In this document: piece by piece, positions 5,603-59,821 of the stretch
How the letters are laid out: each line of letters starts with the position of its first letter
Position numbering within the stretch: the first letter of the stretch is position 1
NCBI RefSeq assembly: GCF_028641065.1
Contig: NC_073387.1
Span: 3,162,001-3,226,000 of the forward strand
Source: Leucoraja erinacea
Taxonomy: Eukaryota
DNA: 64,000 nt
Direction: 5' to 3'
Made by a program: the position numbers and the translations under genes
Notes under the pieces: model-generated
The model's database searches: none
The model's input: only the letters and a program-made list of their open reading frames with translations
What the model was told of the DNA's origin: nothing

Positions 5603-6307
5603 AGGTAGACAAAAGTGCTGGAGAAACTCAGCGGGTGCAGCAGCATCTATGGAGTGAAGGAAATAGGGCGGAAACGTTGCCTATTTTCTTCGCTCCATAG
5701 ATGCTGCTGCACCCGCTGAGTTTCTCCAGCACTTTTGTCTACCTTTGATTTTCCAGCATCTGCAGTTCCTTCTTAAGCACCTACACAGATACGTCTTGGA
5801 GAAGGAAGTCAATCTCTTTCGGGGGAGTATAGATTTAAGTAGGCGTAGGAAGCAACTGCAGATGCTGGTTTAAACCGAAGGTAGACACAAACAAGCTGGA
5901 GTAACTCAGCGGGTCAGGCAGCATCTCTGGCGAGAAGGAATAGGTGGCGTTTTACAGTCGAGACCTGAAGAAGGGTCTCGACCCGAAACGTCACCTATTC
6001 CTTTTTATCCAGAGACGCTACCAAGCCCGCCAAATTACTACCTTCGGTTTAAACCAGCATCTGCAGTTCCTTCTTACACTATATGTCATTTATTATTATG
6101 TCATTTTATACCCGATACTGTGTTTTTGTTTAAGAAGGAACTGCAGATGCTGGAAAATTGAAGGTAGACAAAAATGCTGGAGAAACTCAGCGGGTGCAGC
6201 AGCATCTATGGAGCGAAGGAGATAGGCAACGTTTCGGCCCGAAACGTTGCCTATTTCCTTCGCTCCATAGATGCTGCTGTACCCGCTGAGTTTCTCCAGC
6301 ATTTTGG
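5603..6307. mobile_element. Cluster of three Penelope-derived foldback repeats (5603-5775, 5845-6078, 6126-6307)
   Basis: Inverted arms of TGCTGGAG(T/A)AACTCAGCGGG..GCAGCATCT. The first copy has a duplication AGCACCTACA(T/C)AGA. The same sequence abuts GIY-YIG fragments elsewhere in the window. Confidence 0.75.
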
Positions 6308-9250: not shown

Positions 9251-9847
9251 CTGATACATACGTCTACACATATACAGCTCCGTGCACTGTTACCTACACC
9301 GTTGCAATACAAAGGTAGACAAAAAATACTGGAGTAGCTCAGCGGGACAGGCAGCATCTCTGGAGAGAAGGAATAACCCAATTCCGTTACCATACAGCTC
9401 CCCCACTTGCCACCTACACAGTTACCTATAGAGTTCCATGCACTGCTACCTACAGAACTCCCAGGACTTCTACCTACAATGTTCCTAGAGAGCCCCCTAC
9501 ACTGCAACCTACATTTACCCATAGAGCTGCCTGCACTGGTACCTAGCCATTACATATGCAGCTCCCTGCACTCCTACCTACATTGGTCCAGACAGAGCTC
9601 CATATACTTCGACCAACATTGTCACTTGTAGAGCTGCCTGCATAAGCCACCTCCAGTTGCACAGAGCTCCTTTCAGTGCTACCTACAGACTTACCTACAG
9701 ACCTCCGTGCACATCTGCCCACAGTTATCTATGGACTTCCCTGCACAGATACCTGTACCATCACCTAAAGACCTCCCCAAACTGCTGCCTATCATTAATA
9801 ATAATAATAATAAACTTTATTTTGGACTCAAGGTTCAGACAAAGGAC

Positions 9848-11027
9848 ATAGAAACATAGAAATTAGGTGAAGGAGTAGGCCATTCGGCCCTTCGAGCCTG
9901 CACCGCCATTCAATATGATCATGGCTGATCATCCAACTCAGTATCCTGTACCTGCCTTCTCTCCATACACCCTGATCCCTTTAGCCACAAGAGCCACATC
10001 TAACTCCCTCTTAAATATAGCCTATGAACTGGCCTCAACTACCTTCTGTGGCAGAGATTCCAGAGATTCACCACTCTCTGTGTAAAAATGTTTTTTCAAT
10101 CTCGGTCCTAAAAGATTTCCCCCTTAGCCTTAAACTGTGACCCCTTCTTCTGGACTTCCCCAACATCGGGAACAATCTTCCTGCATCTAGCCTGTCCAAC
10201 CCTTTAAGAATTTTGTAAGTTTCTATAAGATCCCCCCTCAATCTTCTAAATTCTAGCGAGTACAAGCCGAGTCTATCCAGTCTTTCTTCATATGAAAGTC
10301 CTGACATCCCAGGAATCAGTCTGGTGAACCTTCTCTGTACTCTCTCTATGGCAAGAATGTCTTTCCTCAGATTAGGAGACCAAAACTGTATGCAATACTC
10401 CAGGTGTGGTCTCACCAAGACCCTGTACAACTGCAGTAGAACCTCCCTGCTCCTATACTCAAATCATTTTGCTATGAATGCAAACATACCATTCGCTTTT
10501 TTCACTGCCTGCTGCACCTGCATGCCTACTTTCAATGACTGGTGTAACATGACACCCAGGTCTCGTTGCATCTCCCCTTTTCCTAATCGGCCATCATTCA
10601 GGTAATAGTCTACTTTCCTGTTTTTGCCACCAAAGTGGATAACCTCACATTTATCCACATTATACTGCATCTGCCATGCATTTTCCCACTCACCCAGCCT
10701 ATCCAAGTCACCTTGCAGCCTCCTAGCATCCTCCTCACAGCTAACACTGCCCCCCAGCTTCGTGTCATCCGTAAACTTGGAGATGGTGCATTTAATTCCC
10801 TCGTCCAAATCTTTAATATATATTGTAAATAGCTGGGGTCCCAGCACTGAGCCTTGCGGTACCCTACTAGTCACTGCCTGCCATTGTGAAAAGGACCCGT
10901 TTACTCCTACTCTTTGCTTCCTGTCTGCCAGCCAGTTCTCTATCCACATCAATACTGAACCCCCAATACCGTGTGCTTTAAGTTTGTATACTAATCTCTT
11001 ATGTGGGACCTTGTCAAAATCTTTCTG
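9848..11027 (-). mobile_element. CR1 LINE 3' fragment nested in the RTE-X-like element
   Basis: ORFs 10464-10952 and 10068-10430 ([15 protein letters not shown]); TTCTATGT tail. Confidence 0.93.
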
Positions 11028-13460: not shown

Positions 13461-13808
13461 ACATTGTTATGTACAGAGTTCCCTACACTGTTACATACCA
13501 TCACCTATGCAGCTCCCTGCACTCCTACCTACACTGTTACCTACATAGCTTCCCGTGCTTTGACCAAAACTTCGGGAGCTGCCTGCACACCTACCTACAC
13601 TTACCCACAGAGCTCCCCAGATTACTACGCAGAAATATACACACAGAGCTGCCTGTACTGCTACCCTTCATCCCCCTGCACTGCTAACGACACTGTTACC
13701 TGCATTGTTAACTGCACTTTCACCCACTCTGCTACCTATTATTAGTTTGTAACCTACAATCCAACCTGAACTGCACTGTTTCTTATTCCAATACATTGTT
13801 TCCTGCAG

Positions 13809-13861
13809 GGGGAGGAGATTGCAACCTTCACGTGGTCCGCCCTGTTTCAACTAATGCAATT
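13809..13861 (+). ncRNA. Minimal HDV-like self-cleaving ribozyme fold (best-preserved copy)
   Basis: P1, P2, P3, L3 (UUCACGU), single-pair P1.1, minimal P4 and J4/2 CUAA occur in HDV order. One A.G mismatch in P1. Confidence 0.75.
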
Positions 13862-13954
13862 AACTAATGCAATCGACTAATGCACAATCAAATAAGATCA
13901 AATAGAATACATTGTCCTACAACTTTAGGCTGTGCACGCCATACGCAAGAAGAA
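13809..13954 (+). mobile_element. Short non-autonomous retroelement with 5' HDV-like ribozyme, copy 1
   Basis: TSD GTTTCCTGCAG (13798-13808 and 13955-13965); 5' GGGGAGG-A-GATTGCA-ACC-TTCACGT-GGT-CCGCCCT-G-TTTCAA-CTAA-TGCAATT; 3' tail CATACGCAAGAAGAA. Confidence 0.85.
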
Positions 13955-14234
13955 GTTTCCTGCAGTGCTTCACAAACCTCTTCCTACAGTATATATCTGC
14001 CTATACATTACCCACACTTCTGCCGACACCGGGATCTACACCACTATCTCCACTGCTAGGTAACCTACTACTTAAATTGTTACTTAGTGTACTGTCTCAA
14101 CTGTTAGCTAGACTGCTACCTACACTACTATCAAAACACCAGCACCTACATTGGCACTTACAGCGTGTTCTATTCATCTACCTATACTGTAACTACGTAG
14201 CTACCTACACTACAGGAGACGCAAGTAAATACAG

Positions 14235-15232: not shown

Positions 15233-15685
15233 AAACAAAAGATAACTTGAAACATTAGCTCTGGAAAGATACACATCCATCGGATTCTCAAATAATTGTT
15301 GGAGCACTGCTGCCCCTTAGACCTTCAGTTTGCAATGGGATTGGTATTTGCATTGGTTTATTATTGTCATGTGTGCCAAGATACATTGAAAAACTTTGTA
15401 TTGCGTGCTGTCCAGTCAAATCTTACTATACATGAGGACAATCGAATCACACAAAAGCACAAAGGGAAAAATACCAGAGTAATGAATATAGTGTTACAGG
15501 GTTACAGATACAAAGAAAGTGCAGATAATGAAAAGTGAAGTGGCGCAATGAGGTAGTTTGGAAAATCAGGACCACCCTTAGCTGATGAGCTCTTGATCTC
15601 ATGGTCGAAGGCTGCACTGTTGTACTGAATGTGACAGTGAGTTTCATCATCTATATCCACTGCGTCTAACTTGCTCTGTTGCCAC

Positions 15686-15818
15686 TTCTTCTTTCGTGTG
15701 GCGTGCACAGCCTAAAGTTGAAGGACAACTTGTTCTATTTGATCTTCCGTTTTTGCACATCGAGTTGATTGCATTAGACGAAACAGGCGGACCACGTGAA
15801 GTTGCAATCTTCCACCCC
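15686..15818 (-). mobile_element. Short non-autonomous retroelement with 5' HDV-like ribozyme, copy 2
   Basis: TSD GCTCTGTTGCCAC (15673-15685 and 15819-15831); same body, with single-C deletions in P3 and P1'. Confidence 0.85.
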
Positions 15819-16522: not shown

Positions 16523-16659
16523 GGGGTGGGAGATTGCAACCTTCACATGGTCCGCCGTTTCGACAAATGCAATCAACCTGGCGTGCACAATCAAGTAAGA
16601 TCAAATAGAACAAGTTGTCCTACAACTTTAGGCTGTGCACGCCATACGCAAGAAGAAGA
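16523..16659 (+). mobile_element. Short non-autonomous retroelement with 5' HDV-like ribozyme, copy 3
   Basis: TSD AGAGCCTGCAT (16512-16522 and 16660-16670); same body, 2-nt deletion in P1'; (GAA)n tail. Confidence 0.85.
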
Positions 16660-18284
16660 AGAGCCTGCATACGATCATAAGTGGTAGGAATAGATAAATC
16701 AAGACCTTGGCTGGGTGCTCTCCTCATTTTGAGCCAGATTTGAAGAAGAATTACCCACTGAGGCAAACTGGGTCCATACAGTGCGTAATGTGGATGCGGC
16801 TGCAGTGGATGTTCAGCTCATTCTTTGTGTTGCAATTCTGCAGATGGTGAATGTGACCAGTATTTTGTTGGATTTAGTTGAAAGTTGACCAGTATTCAGG
16901 CAAGACCAATGATCTGCACAAAGTCCTCCGGCATTACACTTACAATGGTATTGATTGATTGCATTAATATTATAAAGATTGTCAATCTCACTGTATTTCG
17001 GCAGGTTGCTCCATTTGATAGCTGAAGTTTCTCCTCATTGCAGGAAGACTAGTGAAGTTCCTCGTGTTGAAGATCTTCCAACGCCCTCGCATTGGCATCT
17101 TTACAAAAACACTGGTTGGTGGAACGAGGAGCACTGTGTGTACTTCTGGTCACCAGTCTGTAGTGAGGGATTGTCCTGGAGAGAGTGCAGACCAGATTCA
17201 CCAGATATTGACTTAAACTGGAAGACTTCAGAGTATGGGGAGTGGTGGAAAGGCTGAGCTTGTGTTCCCTGGTGTGAAGGAGGCTGTCGGATGACCTGAG
17301 GGAGGTGTACAACATTTTGAGAGATATAGATAGGGTAGATAGAAACATTTTCCTGTGTTAAGGGTATCAAGAGGACATGGGTTTAAGGTGATAAGAAAAG
17401 TGTTTTAAAGGTTTTTCGTTTACACAGAGAGTGATCGATACTTGCAGAGGAGGTGGTGGGGTAAAATATAATCACAACATTACACAGATATTTATACTGA
17501 CGCCTAAAAATGCAAAGCATTTAAGGGATACAGGCAAATGGGGTTAGTAGATGGGCACAGTTGTTGCCATGGATTTGGTGGGCTGAAGGGCCCATTTCCG
17601 TGCTGAATGGCTCTAAGACTCGATGATAGAGAGTATTTGCATTGCGGTGAGCAACTTGGTATTTCACAAATTTAGCCTGTTGTTACATAGAATGTGAAAC
17701 ATTGCAGCACAAGAACAGGACGTTCGGCCCACAATGCTTGTGCCAAACATGATCATAAGGTCATAAGCGATAGGAGCAGAATTAGGCCATTCGGCCCATC
17801 AAGTTTCCTCCGTCATTCAATCATGGCTGATCTATCTCTTCCACCTAACCTAATTCTCCTGCCTTCTCCCCATAAGCCCTAACACCCGTACTAATCAAGA
17901 ATCTATCTCTGCTTTAAAAATATCCATTGACTTGGCCTCCACAACCTTCAGTGGCAAAGAATTCAACACCTTCTGACTAAAGAAATTCCTCCTCATCTCC
18001 TTCCTAAAAGAACCTGCTTTAATTCTGAGACTATGGCCTCTGGTCCTAGACTCTCCCACAAGAGGAAACATCCCCCCCCCACATCCATGCTCTTTAAGCC
18101 TTTCACTGATGTTTCAACGAGGTCCCCCCTCATTCCTCTAAACGCCAGCGAGTACAGACCGTCAAACGCTCATCATTGTATGTTCAAAAGTTCAAAGGGT
18201 CACATACCAATCAAGGTGCAGTGAAACTCGATTTACCATACAGCCATACTACACAAAGCAACAAGACACACAACTACATAAAAG

Positions 18285-20745: not shown

Positions 20746-20926
20746 TAGGAAAGAACTGCAGATGCTGGTTTAAATCGAAGGTAGACACAAAATGCTGGAG
20801 TAACTCAGCGGGGCAGGCAACATCTCTGGAGAGAAGGAATGGGTGACGTTTCGGTCAAGCATGAAGAAGGGTCTCGACCCAAAACGTCACCCATTCTTTC
20901 TCCCCAGAGATGCTGCCTGTCCTGCT

Positions 20927-21121
20927 TCTTCTACTTGCGTGTGAGGCAGCAGAAGTCTGCAGCAGGGTGATGCCATCCGGTTCGACATCCATAGGTGCCC
21001 GCCCTAAAAAGGGCGCATGCTCCGAGTTGGCGCCAAGCTGCAGTGCTGCTGCTGTCTCTGTTTGTTGTCGTTCGCCTGTCTGAGGTCAGTTGACGGGACG
21101 CACCATGGGGAAGTCGACAAC
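20927..21121 (-). mobile_element. Second short retroelement with an HDV-like fold and GAAGAAG tail, inserted in a Penelope-derived repeat
   Basis: TSD CCTGTCC(T/C)GCT (20916-20926 and 21122-21132); tail CACACGCAAGTAGAAGAAG; P2 GTTGTCG/CGACAAC with J4/2 GCGAA. Confidence 0.75.
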
Positions 21122-22606
21122 CCTGTCCCGCTGAGTTACTCGAGCATTTTGGGACTGTTTCTATGCTGTACCTGCAAAGAGTATATCTTGAGCCTGAGGC
21201 TTGTCATAGAAACATAGAAAATAGGTTCGGGAGTAGGCCATTCGGCCCTTCGAGCCTGCACCGCCATTCAAAATGATCATGGCTGATCATCCAACTCAGT
21301 ATCCCGTACCTGCCTTCTCTCCATACCCCCTGATCCCTTCAGCCACAAGGGCCACATCTAACTCCATCTTAAATATAGTCAATGAACTGGCCTCAACTAC
21401 CTTCTGTGGCAGAGAATTCCACATATGCACCACTCTGTGTATAAAGTTGTCGATGCAGCTTCAAAGATGTGGCAATGGCTGTTGTCTTTAGACCCCCAGC
21501 AGGTAGTTCGACCTTGCGCAGCAGTCAATGATCTCAGCCTGATCTGAATGTCTATGGTGCAGTATGTAAAAATTGTAAATTGTCCCTCGTGTGTAAGATA
21601 ATACATGTATGGGGATTGCTGGCCAGTGTGGACTCAGAGAGCTACAGGGTCTGTTTCTGCACTGTATCTCTAACTTAATGTGTGTTAAATGCAAGGATGT
21701 TGGTGAGTTGCACACGTGGAAACAATGGATGTAGCGGCAAGAGTGAATGTGGAAGCAATTGATACTAATGAGAGGACTGAATAGAATCTGAGGAATGATG
21801 TAGCATGGATTATACCTACAGGAATAGGAGGTAGATATACGATTACTACAGTACAGATGGGTTGGAATCAGGAGTCGGAGTTAAACACCAGTGTGGGTTA
21901 GATCAGCAACATGGGATAGAAAGTGGAACACAGATCAGTCAAAATGTAAGGTAAGGGAGAGCTTTGTGGGTTGGAAACCACACCACGGGTTAGACATAGC
22001 TTCCTGAAAGAGATATCTGTTAAATAAATGTTCAGTAGATACAGATACACTTTTGTATATAGGCACATGGCTTAACCATAGGAATATGTATGACAAAAGA
22101 ATCTGGGTTGGATACAGAACATAGGAAAGATACTCGAATATGCTGGGATTTAGGTTGGATATATGAACAAACGTTGGGTGCAGGAACATGGGTTAAATAC
22201 AGGAATGTGGAATAGCACTAGAATTTGATTGGAAGATACATGAACTGGGGTCGGACACGGGAACATGAATAAGATATGAGAACATATAGACACATGAAAC
22301 TGCAGATGTTGGAATCTTGAGCAAAACACAAAGGGCCATAGGAACTCAGTGGGCCTGGCAGCATCTGTGGAGGGAATGGACAAAGAACGTTTCATGTCAG
22401 ACCCTTCTTCAGACTGTGACAAGAACAGGTGTTAGATAAACATGGGTGAGTCAGAAATGTAAATTAGATTTAGGACCATGTAATTATAATGCATTTTGTT
22501 GTCTCTGTACTGTACAATGACAATGACAATTAAAATTGAATCTGAATCTGAATCTGTACTGGTTCCAGGAATATTGGCCTGATTGAAGAACATTGGATAA
22601 ATCCAA

Positions 22607-22994: not shown

Positions 22995-24215
22995 AAACAG
23001 AAAAATAGTTGCTGGAGTAGGCCATTCGGCCCTTCAAGCCAGCACCGCCATTCAATATGATCATGGCTGATCGTCTAAAATCAGTACCCCCCGTTCCTGC
23101 TTTTTCCCCACATCCCTTCATTCCTTTAACCCTAAAAGCTAAATCTAACTCTCTCTTGAAAACATCCAGTGAATTGGCCTCCACTGCCTTCTGCGGCAGA
23201 GAATTCCACAGATTCACAACTCTCTGGGTGAAGAAATGTTTCCTCATCTCAGTCCTAAATGTCCTGCCCCTTTTTCTAAAACTGTGACCCTTGTTTCTGC
23301 ACTCCCCCAACATAGGGAACATGTTTCCTGCATCGAGCCTGTCCAACCCTTTAAGAATTTCATATGTTTCTATAAGATCCACTCTCATCCTTCTAAATTC
23401 CAGTGAACACAAGCCCAGTTGACCCATTCTTTCATCGTAGGTCAGTCCCGCCATCCCGGGAATTAAGCTGGTGAATCTCCGCTGCACTCCCTCAATAGCA
23501 ATAATGTCCTTCCTCAAATTAGGAGACCAAAATTTCACACAATACTCCAGATGCGGTCTCACCAAGGGCCTGTACAACTGCAGTAGGACCTCCTAGCTCC
23601 TAAACTCAAATCCTCTTGCAATGGCCAACATGCCATTAGCTTTCTTCACTGCCACCTGTACCTGCATGCTTACTTTCAGTGACTGATGTACAAGCACACC
23701 CAGGTCTCGTTGCATCTCCCCTTTTCTTAATCCGACACCATTCAGACAATAATCTGCTTTCCTGTTCTTTCCATCAAAGTGGATAACCTCACATTTATCT
23801 ACATTATACTGCATCTGCCATGCATCTGCCCACTCACCCAACCTATGCAAGTCACCCTGCAGCCTCATCGCATCCTCCTCATAGCTCACACTGCCACCCA
23901 GCTTTGTGTCATCCGCAAACTTGGAGATGTCACATTAAATTCCCTTGTCTAAATCATTACTATATATTGTAAACAACTGGGGTCCCAGCACCGAGCCTTG
24001 CGGCACCCCACTGGTCACTGACTGCCGTTCCGAAAAGGACCCGTTAATTCCTACTCTTTGTTTCCTGTCTGCCAAGCAGTTCTCTACCCATGTCAATACC
24101 CTACACCCAATACCCTGTGCTCTAATTTTGCACATTATTCTCTTGTGTGGGACCTTGTCAAAGGCTCTTTGAAAGTCCAGATACACCACATCCACTGGCT
24201 CTCCCTTATCCATAT
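22995..24215 (-). mobile_element. CR1 ORF2 3' fragment (frameshifted)
   Basis: ORFs 23935-24213, 23593-23889 and 22963-23577 with RT motifs. Confidence 0.93.
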
Positions 24216-24601
24216 TAGTAAGGCATTTGATAAGTCTCCCATGGTAGACTGATCCAGAAAATTAAAATGCATGGGATTAATAGTGACTTGGTCCAATGAA
24301 ATAGGAACTGGTTTACTGCTAGAAGACAGGATTGCAGTGGAACGACAATATTCAGGCTGAAAGTTACCAATGAAGTGCCACAGATACTTGTGCTGGGATC
24401 TCTGCTGTTTGTGATGTGTACATAAATGCATTGGATGTAAATGTGGACGGGTTGGTTAGTACGTTTGCAAATTACACTAAGACTGCTGGGGTCACATATT
24501 GTGAGGAAGACTGTCAAAGTATACAGCAGGATATAGATCAGCTACAGAATCGGGCAGAGAAAAATCATATGGAGTTTGATCTGAGCAAATGTGAGGTTTA
24601 A

Positions 24602-25290: not shown

Positions 25291-27544
25291 ATGAACGAGT
25301 GTAAAGAAGGCATATAGTATGCTAGCTTTCAAAACTTAGGACATTGATTATAAGAGTCAGGAACTCATAATGCAGCATTATAGGACTTTGGTTAGGTCAC
25401 ATTTGGAGTATTATGCGAGGTTCGGGTGCCTCCATGACAGAAAATATGTTGCGTCTTGGGAAAGGATGCAGGGGGTAGTTTACCAGAATGACGACTGAAT
25501 TAGGGGGTATTAGCTGCAGGGACAGACTGTTTTCTCTGGAACGCTGGAGGCTGTGGGAAGACCCAATTAAAGTACATATAATTATGAGGTATAGATGGAG
25601 TAGTCAGAATCTTTTTTCCCCCATTATGGACAAAATCAAATAGGAGAGTGCATAGCTTCAGGGTTTGGGAAGTACTCTCAGAATAGCATAGTCAATATAT
25701 GTTGTACACAATACAGCCAGTCAAGCAGTGGTTGAAGGAGTGCTGCTACAGTGACAGGCACAAAATGTAATTGTAATTGTAATTGTAATTGTAAATCTTT
25801 ATTGTCATTTCCTGAGTATTCGCATACTCAGAGGAAACAAAAAAACGTTTCTCAACCAGTGTCCGTTCAGTTTTCGTTACAAAATAAATAGCAATTAAAA
25901 TTAAAATACAGTCATGAACAATTTAACCCTCTAATCACATTCAATAACATTCAACAGCCGGAGTAACTCAACAGGACAGGCAGCATTTCTGGAGCGAAGG
26001 GACTCGACCCAAAATGTCACCCATCCCCATTCTCCAGAGATGCTGCCGGGCCCACTGAGTTACTCCAGTATCCATCTTTGGTTTAAACCAGCGCCTGCAT
26101 ATTTTGGCTGCTCCAGTGAGCTCCCTTGATTGTGTGAATGTTCAAACTGCATTCATCCAGGCCAATGGAGGGTATTACATCATCCCCCCCGGATTTGAGC
26201 CGGAAGGATTTTGGGATGTCAGAAGACAAGTCACTCATTACAGGATACCCAGTGTCAGACTTGCTCTTTCAGACATGGTGTTTAAGTGTAGGAAGGAACT
26301 GCAGATGCTGGATTAAAACGAAGATAGACACAAAATGCTGGAGTAACTCAGCGGGACAGGCAGCATCTCTCGAGAAGAATGGGTGACGTTTCGGGTCGAG
26401 AACCTTCTTCAGACTAGTGCCCGATGCAGCTCACTTTCTGGTTATCAGCAGGTGTGGACATTGGGGGCTTGGTGAAGTTAATGCTGGTAAAAATCGTAGG
26501 CAGGTGGATGGACACGCTCATGTTAAAGACTTTCATTGGCTATTTGACTTCATTTAATGCAAGTTGATGTGTTGAATCTGATTTCTAGAAAAGCAGCACC
26601 ATCTAGTGTGCAACCTAAGCCATTGCAAACAAAGGAATAAACTTTTAATTATTTGCAGACATAACTTCCTCAGATATATTTCATTTACAAAAGTTGTTTT
26701 TATCCCATACTTGGAGTAACAACTTGGATAATGGGTCAGATATGCATCATAGCTTGGGGATTATTAAGTAGCTGCTTTCTATGTGAACTGCTTAGTTAAG
26801 CTCATGAGTGACAGGAGCAGAATTAGGCCATTCGGCCTATCGCGCCTGCACAACCATGGCTGATCTATCTCTCCCTCATTACCCCATAACCCCCGACACC
26901 CGTACTAACAGCAACAGTCCACATCAAGAAGGATGCAGCCTGAAAAAGTATAGGAAGGAGCTGTAGATGTTGGTTTAAACCGTAGACACAAAAAGCTGGA
27001 GTAACTCAGCAGGTCAGACCGCATCTCTGGAGAAAAGGTATAGGTGACGTTTCGGGTCGAGACCCTTCTTCAGACAGATTGTGGTGAGGGGGAGGGGAGA
27101 AGAAGCTTGAAGATCTATTCCTTTTCGCCAGAGATGCTGCCTGTCCCGCTGAGTTACTCCAGCTTTTTGTGTGTATCTTCTGAAAGAGTGCTGGAGTAAC
27201 TTAAGCAGGTCAGGTTTAGGTCTTTAGAGAACATGGATGGGTGATGTTTAGGGTTGGGACACTTCTTCAGACAGATTGTGGTGGGGGGGGGGGGAAGAAA
27301 GATGGGAGACGGAGGCAGGCCGAAGCCTGACAGGTGGTACAGGTGAGGGGTTTTTGATAGGCAGATGGTTTGACAATAGTCAGATGAAAAGCTAAGGTGT
27401 GAGATAAGGAAAGAAGAGGTGCAAATTGTGAAACCAGAGGAAGGAATATAAATGGAAAGGGAATAGGAGGGATGCAAATGTAGATGGGGCACAATGCAAA
27501 TGGGTGCAAATGTAGATAGGGCAAAGGGCAAAGGGGCAAGGAAG

Positions 27545-45227: not shown

Positions 45228-46716
45228 TAATAATAATAACTTTATTTGTTAAGCACCTTAAAAACAACCAAAGCTGACCAAAGTGCTGTACAGAAAAAAG
45301 AAAACAAGCAAGACATCATAAAACAGGCAGAACAACAGAACATACAACTAACACGAGGCGCATAAATTACATACAAAAATCCAAACAATAAATTAAAAAA
45401 CATAAAACACAAGTACAAACAACGCAGCAAAACCAAGCAAATAAAGTTAATAAACAATTCGACACCTCACTGGTCTACAAAGGCCATGGAGAATAGATAT
45501 GTCTTCAGGAGTGATTTAAAAACAGCTAGAGAAGGGGCCTGTTTAACGTGCAGAGGCAATTCATTCCACAATCTCGGAGCCGACACAGCAAAGGCACGGT
45601 CCCCTCTGAGCTTCCGCTTAGTCTTTGGCTCAATCAGGAGCAGCTGATCATCTGACCTGAGAGAGCGGGAGGGCGAATAAGGGTGAAGAAGCTCAGATAG
45701 GTAGGACGGGGCAAGACCACTTAGGGATTTAAAAGTAAATAAAATAATTTTAAAACGAATCCTATACTGAATAGGCAGCCAGTGGAGAGAGGCCAAAAGG
45801 TGAGAAACATGATCATGCTTTCGTGTGCCTGTCAAAAGACGAACAGCTGCATTCTGTACCATCTGGAGACGGGCGATGGAGGACCGACTAACCCCCAGAT
45901 ACAGTGCATTGCAGTAATCCAGCCGGGTGGTAACAAAGGCATGGATTACCGTCTCAAAGTGCTTCCTTGACAAAATCGGCTTTATTTTTGCCAGCTGCCT
46001 CAGATGGAAAAAACCAGATTTAACAACAGCCCTTACCTGACAGTCAAATCTAAGCTCAGGGTCCACTTTAATCCCCAGGTTCGTGATGTTAGGTTTGAGA
46101 TATGCAGACAAAGAGCCTAGATCAACAGGGGGGGCCCCAGAGGTGCCACCAAAGATCATTACCTCTGTCTTGTCATCATTAAATTTTAAAAAGTTCAGTG
46201 ACATCCAGGCCTTTATGTCACTGAGACACTCAAGCAAGAGCCCGACAGAGTGTACACCCCCCTTTCCCAGAGGCACATAAAGCTGACTGTCATCAGCATA
46301 AAAGTGGAATGAAATCCCGTGCTTCCTAAGGATGGAACCGAGTGGGAGCAAATAGAGTGAAAAGAGGAGAGGGCCAAGAACTGAGCCCTGTGGGACCCCA
46401 CACGACAGAGGAGCAGAGGAGGATACAGAGTCCCCAAGGCTGACACAAAAAGTTCGATCAGCCAAGTACGACCTGAACCACTCCAGTGCTATGCCCCTGA
46501 TACCCACCCACTGCTCCAAACGGGAGATCAAAATTTCATGATCCACTGTGTCAAAGGCAGCTGACAAATCTAAAAGCACGAGGACAACACAGTCACCTTG
46601 ATCAGTAGCCAAAAAAATATCATTAAAAACCCTCAAAAGGGCCGATTCTGTGCTGTGCCGGGACTTAAAACCGGACTGGAAAACCTCCAAAACGTCATGT
46701 TCCTCCAAAAAGGCCA
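45228..46716 (-). mobile_element. L2 LINE, 5'-truncated, with uninterrupted RT/C-terminal ORF (stop at 45467)
   Basis: [54 protein letters not shown]; AATAAA plus (TTA)n tail; TSD ACAATAA (45221-45227 and 46717-46723). Confidence 0.92.
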
Positions 46717-47111
46717 ACAATAACATTTGCAGTATTGTTTACCCTGCTATAGGAAATATGTCATTAAGCTGGTCAAAGTACAAAGATGAATATTGCCACC
46801 GCGCCTCAGGGGCAGAGCATAGGGAGAGGTTGACAGGTTCAAACTTGATTCCGGAGAGAGCAGTAGATTGAGGGGTGACCTTAGAAAGATAGATAAAATA
46901 AGGCGGGGCAGAGATAAGGCTAACGTAATTTTTTTCCCAGGAAGAAGAATCAAGAACAAGAGAGCATAGGTCTAGGTGAGAGTGGAAAGATTTAAAAGGG
47001 ACTCAAGGGTCGATTTCTTTACTCAGAGGGTGGTGCCAGGGAAGTGGTAGAGCCAGTTACAATAACATTTAAAAGACATTGAGAGATGAACATGGAAAGG
47101 AAAAGATTTAA

Positions 47112-56084: not shown

Positions 56085-56386
56085 CCTTTCTGTCCTGGGC
56101 CTCCTCCATGGCCAGAGTGAGGACCACCGGGAATTGGAGGAGCAGCACCTCATATTTTGCTTGGGCAGTTAATACCCCAGTGGCATGAACATTGACTTCT
56201 CCAATTTCAGGTAGCCCTCACTGTCTCCTCCCTTTCTCAGCTCTCTGGCTCCTCCTCTTCCTTTCTTCTTCCCGCCCCCACCCTACATCAGTCTGAAGAA
56301 GGGTTTTGGCCCGAAACATTGCCTATTTCCTTCGCTCCATAGATGCTGCCGCACCCACTGAGTTTCTCCAGCACTTTTGTCTACCT
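56085..56386 (+). mobile_element. Penelope-like 3' fragment with terminal repeat
   Basis: LEEQHLIF.LG-coding segment followed by CAGTCTGAAGAAGGG...CCCGAAAC. Confidence 0.8.
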
Positions 56387-56926: not shown

Positions 56927-59821
56927 GTGACAGGAGACAGAATGTGTGAAGATAAAGCTTTAGATGTAAAAGGGGCAAAAACGGAAAGGAAGGGTAGTAA
57001 AAATCATCTGAAAGTGCTTTATCTAAATGCACGGAGTATTCGTAATAAGATAAATCAATTAACGGTGCAATTAAGTATATATAGTTATGATATCGTGGCC
57101 ATTACGGAGACATGGCTGCAAGGGGATCAGGACTGGGAGTTAAATATAGAGGGGTACTCGACAATTAGGAAAGATAGACAGGAAAGAAAGGGAGGAGGGG
57201 TGGCCCTTTTAATAAGGGAGGGAATAACGGCAATAGAGAGGAAGGATATTGCGTTGAAGGATCAGGATAGTGAAACAGCTTGGGTACAGATAGAGAATAA
57301 TAAGGGGAAAAAAACACTAGTGGGTGTAATTTATAGACCTCCAAATAGCTGTGACGCTGTTAGTCAGAACATAAATCTGCAAATAGTTGACGCATGTAAA
57401 AAGGGAACTGCTGTAATCATGGGGGACTTCAATTTTCATATTAATTGGGCAAACCAAACTGGGCAGGGTAGACTAGAGGAAGAGTTTATAGAATGTATTA
57501 GAGACGGGTTTCTAGAACAGTATGTCACAGAACCGACAAGGGGGGAGGCAATCTTGGATCTGGTCCTGTGTAATGAAGCAGGATTAATTAAAAATGTCAT
57601 AGTTAGGGACTCGTTGGGAACAAGTGACCACAATATGGTCGAATTCCATATTCAAATAGAAGGGGAGCAGGTTGAAACTCAGGCTAGGGTGCTTAGTCTA
57701 AATAAGGGGGATTATGAAGGTATGAGGACTGAGCTGATCAAAGTTGACTGGGATAGCAGACTCAAGAATAAGACGGTACATGAGCAGTGGTGTACGTTTA
57801 AGGGTATACTGTATACCCTTCAAGAAAAATTTATTCCTATGAAGAAGAAAAGGGGTAAGGGTAAGAACAGTCAGCCATGGCTCAGTAAAACTATAAAGGA
57901 TAGTATTCGGCTGAAGGCAAGGGCATATAAGGTAGCCAGAGATAGTGGGAGGGTAGAGGATTGGGAAGCATTTAAAGGTCAGCAAAAAATAACTAAGAGA
58001 TTAATTAAGACGGGGAAAATAGACTATGAAAGGAATTTAGCGAACAACATAAAAACTAATAGTAAGAGTTTTTATAGCTATATAAAAAGAAAAAGGGTGG
58101 CTAAGGTGAACGTTGGTCCATTGGAGGGTGAGACTGGAGAGTTGTTGGTGGGGAACATGGAAATGGCAAAGGCATTAAACAAGTATTTTGTATCAGTCTT
58201 CACCATAGAAGACACAAAAAATATTCCAACGCTGGATAAACAGGGGGCGGTAGGAATGGAGGAGCTAAATACTATTAAGATCACCAAGGAGGTGGTATTA
58301 GGGAAATTAATGAGACTGAAGGAGGATAAATCCCCTGGGCCTGATGGATTACATCCAAGGGTCTTGAGGGAGATAGCGGTGGGGATTGTGGATGCATTGG
58401 TGATAATTTTCCAAAACTCCCTGGAGGCAGGAACGGTCCCAGTGGATTGGAAAATGGCCAATGTAACACCTATATTTAAAAAAGGAAGTAAACAGAAGGC
58501 AGGTAACTATAGACCGGTTAGTCTAACATCGGTGGTGGGTAAAATGTTAGAGACAATTATTAAAGAAACACTAACGGGGCACTTGGATAAACATGACTTC
58601 ATCGGACAGAACCAGCATGGTTTTGTGAAGGGGAAGTCCTGTTTAACGAATCTGCTCGAATTCTTTGAGGAAGTAACAACCCGGGTGGATAAAGGGGAAC
58701 CGGTGGATGTGGTATACTTGGACTTCCAAAAGGCTTTTGACAAGGTGCCACATAAGAGACTATTGCTAAAAATAAAAAATTATGGGATTGGGGGTAATAT
58801 ATTAGCATGGGTAGAGGATTGGCTAACAAATAGGAAGCAGAGAGTGGGGATAAATGGTTCATACTCGGGATGGCAACCGGTAACTAGCGGGGTTCCGCAA
58901 GGGTCGGTGCTGGGACCCCAGTTGTTCACAATTTATATAAATGATTTGGAGGAGGGAACCAAGTGTAATATATCAAAATTTGCGGACGATACAAAAATGG
59001 GAGGAAAAGTAGGGGATGAGGAGGATAGGAAGAGTCTGCAAAAGGATATAGATAAGCTAGGTGAGTGGGCAACAACTTGGCAGATGAAATTTAATACTAA
59101 TAAATGTGAAGTCATTCACTTTGGGAAAAAAAATGATAGGGCAAGTTATTTTTTTCTAAATGAGGAGGAGCTGCGTTGTAATGCAACGCAAAGGGATCTA
59201 GGGGTATTAGTACATGAATCACTGAAAGTTAGTATGCAGGTGCAGCAAGCAATCAGGAAGGCCAATGGAGTTTTGGCCTTTATTGCTAGGGGGATTGAGT
59301 ATAAAAACACGGAGGTCTTGCTGCAGCTGTACACAGTATTAGTGAGACCACATTTGGAATACTGTGTACAGTTCTGGGGTCCATACTTAAGAAAGGATGT
59401 ACTAGCCCTGGAGGCAGTGCAGCGAAGGTTTACAAGATTAATTCCTGCAATGAGGGGATTGACGTATGAGGAAAGGTTAAGTAGGCTGGAACTCTACTCT
59501 TTGGAGTTTAGAAGAATGAGAGGCGATCTCATTGAAACATATAAGATCGTGAGGGGCCTTGATCGGGTGGATGCACCGAGGATGTTCCCAATGATCGGGG
59601 AGACTAGAACTAGGGGACATAGTTGCAGAATAAGGGGGGGCTCTTTTAAAACTGAGATGAGGAAGAACTTCTTCACCCAGAGGGTGGTTAATTTATGGAA
59701 TTCACTGCCCCAGGGAGCAGTGGAAGCAGAAACTTTAAATATATTTAAGACTAAAATAGATGGTTTTTTAGCTGCCAAGGGGATAAGGGGCTACGGGGAG
59801 AGGGCAGGGATATGGACCTAG
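56927..59821 (+). CDS. CR1 ORF2: AP endonuclease plus reverse transcriptase (964 codons; first ATG at 56942)
   Basis: [50 protein letters not shown] and FADD, with no stops or frameshifts. Confidence 0.97.
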   Translation: MTGDRMCEDKALDVKGAKTERKGSKNHLKVLYLNARSIRNKINQLTVQLSIYSYDIVAITETWLQGDQDWELNIEGYSTIRKDRQERKGGGVALLIREGITAIERKDIALKDQDSETAWVQIENNKGKKTLVGVIYRPPNSCDAVSQNINLQIVDACKKGTAVIMGDFNFHINWANQTGQGRLEEEFIECIRDGFLEQYVTEPTRGEAILDLVLCNEAGLIKNVIVRDSLGTSDHNMVEFHIQIEGEQVETQARVLSLNKGDYEGMRTELIKVDWDSRLKNKTVHEQWCTFKGILYTLQEKFIPMKKKRGKGKNSQPWLSKTIKDSIRLKARAYKVARDSGRVEDWEAFKGQQKITKRLIKTGKIDYERNLANNIKTNSKSFYSYIKRKRVAKVNVGPLEGETGELLVGNMEMAKALNKYFVSVFTIEDTKNIPTLDKQGAVGMEELNTIKITKEVVLGKLMRLKEDKSPGPDGLHPRVLREIAVGIVDALVIIFQNSLEAGTVPVDWKMANVTPIFKKGSKQKAGNYRPVSLTSVVGKMLETIIKETLTGHLDKHDFIGQNQHGFVKGKSCLTNLLEFFEEVTTRVDKGEPVDVVYLDFQKAFDKVPHKRLLLKIKNYGIGGNILAWVEDWLTNRKQRVGINGSYSGWQPVTSGVPQGSVLGPQLFTIYINDLEEGTKCNISKFADDTKMGGKVGDEEDRKSLQKDIDKLGEWATTWQMKFNTNKCEVIHFGKKNDRASYFFLNEEELRCNATQRDLGVLVHESLKVSMQVQQAIRKANGVLAFIARGIEYKNTEVLLQLYTVLVRPHLEYCVQFWGPYLRKDVLALEAVQRRFTRLIPAMRGLTYEERLSRLELYSLEFRRMRGDLIETYKIVRGLDRVDAPRMFPMIGETRTRGHSCRIRGGSFKTEMRKNFFTQRVVNLWNSLPQGAVEAETLNIFKTKIDGFLAAKGIRGYGERAGIWT

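Follow-up and report, generated by a model that had tools for sequence, protein, structure and literature searches.

A short retroelement of Leucoraja erinacea with a predicted HDV-like head, probably an internal-deletion derivative of a Vingi-like LINE

Known ribozyme-headed short elements and the window copy

The NARTc, RIME, and SIDER elements of trypanosomatids (L1Tc/Ingi clade) are short, non-coding retroelements that combine the HDV-like 5′ head of their parent with a short 3′ end. For these elements, PMC3383444 places the cleavage site at +1 and gives target site duplications (TSDs) of 11–12 nt. Similarly, R2 SIDEs of Drosophila join a 5′ HDV-like ribozyme to the 3′ end of their parent and are moved in trans (PMC3414825). 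A bipartite structure of 5′ and 3′ parts is also found in non-autonomous deletion derivatives of Vingi, such as Vingi-1_EE (Kojima et al. 2011, as cited in PMC5786205), and Vingi itself is described in PMC13708176 as a compact single-ORF APE element without RNase H. No statement of a Vingi ribozyme was found in the literature searched, and Kojima 2011 or Ruminski 2011 may already report one.

The elements described here, termed family 2, are of this known kind (NARTc, RIME, R2 SIDE), extended to an abundant vertebrate case. As in Vingi-1_EE, their two ends come from a compact LINE with a single ORF, an APE domain, and no RNase H. They differ from NARTc, RIME, and SIDER in occurring in a vertebrate, in having a parent that lacks RNase H, an (AAG)n tail, and a 29-codon ORF remnant, and in that cleavage is only predicted. 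Unlike R2 SIDEs, which derive from a site-specific, RLE-type element and are rare, they are dispersed and abundant.

The window analyzed comprises 64,000 nt of contig NC_073387.1 (positions 3,162,001 to 3,226,000, assembly GCF_028641065.1). One member of this dispersed ~200-bp family lies on the minus strand at 21121–20927, and its insertion split a host palindromic repeat with long inverted arms (approximately 20782–21150; host families D1, D4, and D7). We consider it very probable that this window copy is a decayed, ~200-nt non-autonomous internal-deletion element of a ~3-kb Vingi-type LINE, from which its predicted HDV-like head was likely inherited. A preliminary description of the locus had also read it as a short retroelement with an HDV-like head, and the 11-bp TSD on which that reading drew is present with one mismatch (21132–21122 upstream and 20926–20916 downstream on the minus strand).

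Segment positions and comparison with family copies place the head at 21064–21121 (minus strand, as for all parts below) and show that the first 9 nt of the family are missing, in line with the earlier suspicion of a lost 5′ end. The P2 5′ strand GTTGTCG (21121–21115) pairs at 7/7 positions with CGACAAC (21070–21064), and P3 ACT/GGT (21114–21112/21104–21102), L3 TCCCCAT (21111–21105), and J4/2 GCGAA (21075–21071, predicted catalytic C at 21074) were all located as first described. The P1 3′ strand (21101–21095) carries three private changes and P4 (21089–21076) one mismatch. Following the head are the remainder of the parent 5′ leader, shortened by deletion (21044–21063, from alignment to the long parent copy L137 and to longer variants), 29 codons of the parent ORF N-terminus, which end within the first endonuclease motif (ITLLQ; 20957–21043), and the parent 3′ UTR with its (AAG)n tail (20927–20956). 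The codons are identical at 15 of 28 positions to residues 7–34 of P0004 (pairwise E 1e-7), an intact 1013-aa public protein used as the ORF reference, and as DNA they match locus L203 at 95%.

Relative to the family, the copy starts at position 10 and carries 12 substitutions over positions 10–200, including L3 G (to A) and the three in the P1 3′ strand; the J4/2 C is kept, the L3 G is lost, and P1 fails. A pseudoknot descriptor written for this analysis, and tuned after the site had been seen, matches here with P1 at 5/7 pairs; in 30 runs of first-order Markov controls, such matches numbered 0.07 per 64 kb, both strands counted. Rfam, run on the window only, returned no HDV-family match at E ≤ 1. 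Nested MFE folding of the head, a model that leaves pseudoknots out, gave no advantage over shuffles (z +2.0 and +0.15). Because it is 9 nt short, having lost the first P1 strand, this 5′-truncated and decayed copy is predicted not to cleave; taken by itself, the locus is just an ordinary dead repeat.

The letters GGGACAG, initially taken for the P1 5′ strand, are host sequence inside the upstream TSD (21122–21132) and recur in uninterrupted copies of the host repeat at 9324, 26333, and 47895. That pairing with target DNA (GGGACAG with GCGUCCC) restored a functional P1 in this copy has a probability close to negligible, even though two of its three private P1 3′-strand changes create a perfect inverted repeat of 6 nt with the flank of the insertion. 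Only 5/7 pairs would form across a 1-nt linker, L3 G has become A, the flank would already pair at 4/7 positions with the family strand, and the variant is unique in the genome. When the P1 3′ strand of the window copy and close variants of it were searched as a pattern, three genome places matched, and GCGTCCC was present in one only, the window copy, which leaves the proposed original start GGGACGC without a counterpart. The inverted repeat, between 21095–21101 and the flank at 21125–21130, is attributable to chance or to a template-switch mutation.

Family 2 and its parent LINE

Searching the genome with window positions 20927–21122 gave 922 first-look candidates, of which 40 were scored and 30 fetched; besides the self match, the best 40 were at 90%–93%. 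These copies start with GGGGCTC, not with the anticipated GGGACGC: 24 of the 30 begin at the same G, which places the element boundary at the first nucleotide of P1, and their flanks differ from copy to copy. In two other public runs, loose contig ends stack before this same G (84 and 71 contigs). The exact 42-nt head pattern starting GGGGCTC was found at 42 genome places (control 0); a GGGACGC subfamily, considered as a candidate, has no member in the genome. TSDs are about 9–12 bp long in the family, with a TSD score of ≥8 in 16/30 copies versus 7/870 mismatched-flank controls. With their own TSDs and dispersed locations, family 2 copies result from independent retrotransposition.

The tail reported for the window copy is present, although its CACAC and GTAG letters are private to that copy, the family tail being CAAACGCAAGAAG. 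Seven of the 30 loci selected by their head are longer forms; their frame continues through LLQLNAEG, which is a first motif of an endonuclease, and then WLQRLEGVT to a stop and the tail. In one locus (L050), a unit of ~31 nt in the leader/ORF start is tandemly expanded. No pol III RNA gene (tRNA, 7SL, or 5S) was matched by Rfam at the window site, and a classic SINE head was rejected, because the head here is the 5′ end of the LINE itself.

A partner LINE ending in ACGC(AAG)n had been predicted, and a LINE ending with the same tail was found. LINE 3′ ends with the family 2 tail numbered 3667 candidates, of which 150 were scored and 30 listed, and in those 30 the tail follows the end of the ORF. 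A pattern for the 5′ continuation of the parent had 0 genome matches because the parent reads differently there; it was reached from the 3′ side instead, after which RT-bearing loci with the same head were recovered. In L137 the complete head precedes an ORF that is colinear with P0004 residues 1–963, L133 covers residues 4–989 plus the tail, and in L204 the final third of the head, residues 12–983, and the tail occur together in one locus. All three are broken, and no single parent copy was seen with every part intact.

The parent is a ~3-kb element with a single ORF encoding APE, RT, and zinc finger domains, and it shares both ends with family 2. Pfam matches on five pieces were to Exo_endo_phos_2, RVT_1, and, weakly, zf-RVT; RNase H was matched on none of the five, and there is no room for it between RT and zinc finger. 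Close homologues among public proteins have a single ORF of ~1000 aa and no RNase H, and the distant P0022 carries PF00075. The best named match of the C-terminal piece is from a skate, and a PDB search returned distant L1/R2 RTs only. We regard the parent as likely a Vingi-like LINE. The Vingi link rests on the 5′ end of Vingi-2_Gav (Repbase; given in the supplement of PMC5786205), which matches the head of the sister lineage L218 at 33/35 nt by eye and has the same fold.

Many long parent copies share one upstream flank and are therefore duplications of one insertion that was amplified inside a larger repeat. These copies (L132–L142, L207, L208, and L222) are spread over many contigs, tandem or rearranged; several have lost P4–J4/2–P2 by deletion, and others read GCAAA in J4/2.

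Family 2 has its 5′ end, the remnant of the ORF start, and its 3′ tail in common with this parent, and these features, together with the nested deletion variants, point to an internal-deletion derivative. In the proposed route, a source copy would be transcribed by read-through from a host promoter, cleavage by the ribozyme 5′ of G1 would free a unit-length RNA, and the parent protein would bind the 3′ tail in trans, with insertion by target-primed reverse transcription; at the window site, cDNA synthesis or joining would have stopped 9 nt short. The release and trans-insertion steps are modeled on the L1Tc and R2 cases as presented in PMC3383444, PMC3414825, and PMC6765202.

Head fold within the family and across lineages

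The head of family 2 is predicted to be a self-cleaving ribozyme with an HDV-like fold, composed of P1 GGGGCUC/GAGCCCU (first pair G-U), a 2-nt J1/2 (AU), P2 GUUGUCG/CGACAAC, P3 ACC/GGU, L3 UCCCCGU, P4 CUGAC/GUCAG with a CUCA loop, and J4/2 GCGAA. A P4 hairpin had been described correctly, but not its form, given as CUGA/UCAG around 2 nt. In this fold 93.5% of 689 stem cells are paired, versus 26%–47% when it is slid along the sequence. The J4/2 C is kept in 27/30 copies, and all core features in only 9/30. P1.1 is a single pair, C-G in 29/30 copies and U-G in one; it shows no covariation, so its support is weak. Covariation, suggested as a check of the fold, was absent within the family (0 two-sided changes in 30 copies) and present across lineages (below). 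Likewise, once inserted, the head was no better conserved than the body, with non-CpG change at 46/1499 head and 76/3386 body positions. Both absences, which weigh against the ribozyme reading, are expected of dead copies.

An endonuclease search revealed further lineages at about 47%, 37%, and 30% identity, and among 20 fetched stretches, those with 5′ ends kept begin with the same core. Four further lineages have HDV-like heads, with P4 regions of about 25 to 45 nt. One locus (L217) covers P0004 residues 25–984 in a single alignment. The genome holds at least five further Vingi-like lineages (L213:408, L215:511, L218 and L220, both on the minus strand, and L210/L211/L214).

We compared six heads, those of family 2, family 1 (the other family in the window with an HDV-like head), and the four other Vingi-like lineages. 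Stem cells paired in 99/102 cases (P1 41/42, P2 40/42, P3 18/18), counts that are inflated by the picking of segments for best pairing, and two-sided changes occurred at 15/17 positions of P1, P2, and P3. Strands paired at 6–7 positions with their own partners versus means of 4.4 (P1) and 3.4 (P2) across lineages. All six have the J4/2 C, the L3 U..G, and a purine at G1 in common, while the stems turn over. The conserved J4/2 C and L3 U...G are features of HDV-like ribozymes, and a constant core with stem turnover is the pattern expected of their catalytic core.

Family 1 has three copies in the window (13808–13955, plus; 15685–15818, minus; 16523–16660, plus) and 2043 first-look candidates in the genome, with TSDs in 28/30. 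Intact copies have almost no P4 (GTTTCGA) and a J4/2 of CGAA, and the body ends in letters reading VVLQL, which may correspond to the endonuclease motif where family 2 variants also break. Families 1 and 2 were initially called sequence-unrelated, which is wrong for the core: they share the GGGG start, ACC/GGT, an L3 of TYCMCGT, CCCT-GT, and CGAA. Tails of the form CA(A/T)(A/T)CG..AAGAAG also recur across lineages. In an RT tree with two long-branch outgroups and no named Vingi, from which L219 (126 aa) and other long loci were left out, the RT pieces of head-bearing lineages group in a single clade (100/99) that excludes both an RNase-H-bearing relative and a CR1-like piece.

The preliminary description took the two families as independent origins of the ribozyme. 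It is very unlikely that unrelated short elements gained or evolved HDV-like heads separately. Families 1 and 2 do differ in P1, P2, P4, and body, and a parent of family 1 was not found among the pattern matches examined (7/7 and 15/90, none with a Vingi-like ORF). Against this, family 2 derives by deletion from a LINE that itself has this head, both the core letters and the type of tail are found again in four more lineages belonging to a single RT clade, and the VVLQL body end of family 1 resembles, on our reading, the family 2 break motif. On this comparison of sequences, the ribozyme fold is likely a single trait that the clade inherited, and the short elements arose separately by deletion. 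The statement that such elements arose more than once thus applies to deletion events, not to the fold; in the same way, family 2 does lend support to the reading of family 1, through between-family covariation and as homology rather than convergence.

Activity and reach of the heads

A different role for the head would be that of an internal promoter, 5′ protector, translation aid, or protein-binding site that keeps an HDV-like fold and cleaves slowly or not at all, its sharp 5′ end being a transcription start. We consider this improbable, given that the J4/2 C, the L3 U..G, and the G1 purine are kept in all six heads while the stems turn over. In its favor, the 2-nt J1/2 and one-pair P1.1 count against efficient cleavage of the family head; a different ribozyme cleaved little when its linker was 1 nt long, and the 2-nt case was not reported (PMC4908430). 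The 77-nt head of L1Tc is both promoter and ribozyme (PMC3383444), and some well-folded SIDER heads are inactive (PMC4035085). In a poly(A) RNA run there was no pile of read starts at G1, and 10 reads extended into upstream sequence (41 reads on both strands, from about 6% of the run), a result that is weak given the many copies and antisense reads.

Returning to the HDV-like ribozyme as the preferred reading of the head, a broader proposal is put forward tentatively, at rather less than even probability: the whole Vingi clade may carry an active, compact HDV-like 5′ ribozyme with a 2–3-nt J1/2 and a one-pair P1.1. At least five lineages, plus family 1, would keep it here, and mini copies would have scattered thousands of heads, some intact and able to cut host transcripts. 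If Vingi heads do cleave, the clade would join its sister Ingi among ribozyme-bearing LINEs, the bipartite derivatives of Vingi would be explained, and Vingi-derived insertion tools could be affected (PMC13708176). A clade-wide ribozyme would also bear on Vingi-based gene-writing templates that keep the native 5′ UTR. The six heads compared offer naturally occurring covariants that can be tested as they stand.

Elsewhere in the window, four distant RT fragments (58289–59377, 45827–46735, 23632–24216, and 10380–11018), at 26%–30% to P0004, are probably pieces of CR1-like LINEs. The host palindromic repeat carries the pattern CTGAAGA-stem-GAAAC, with three window matches (5965–5989, plus; 27049–27073, minus; 56293–56317, plus) and none in 100 shuffles, which we take to resemble the minimal hammerhead of Penelope-like elements.
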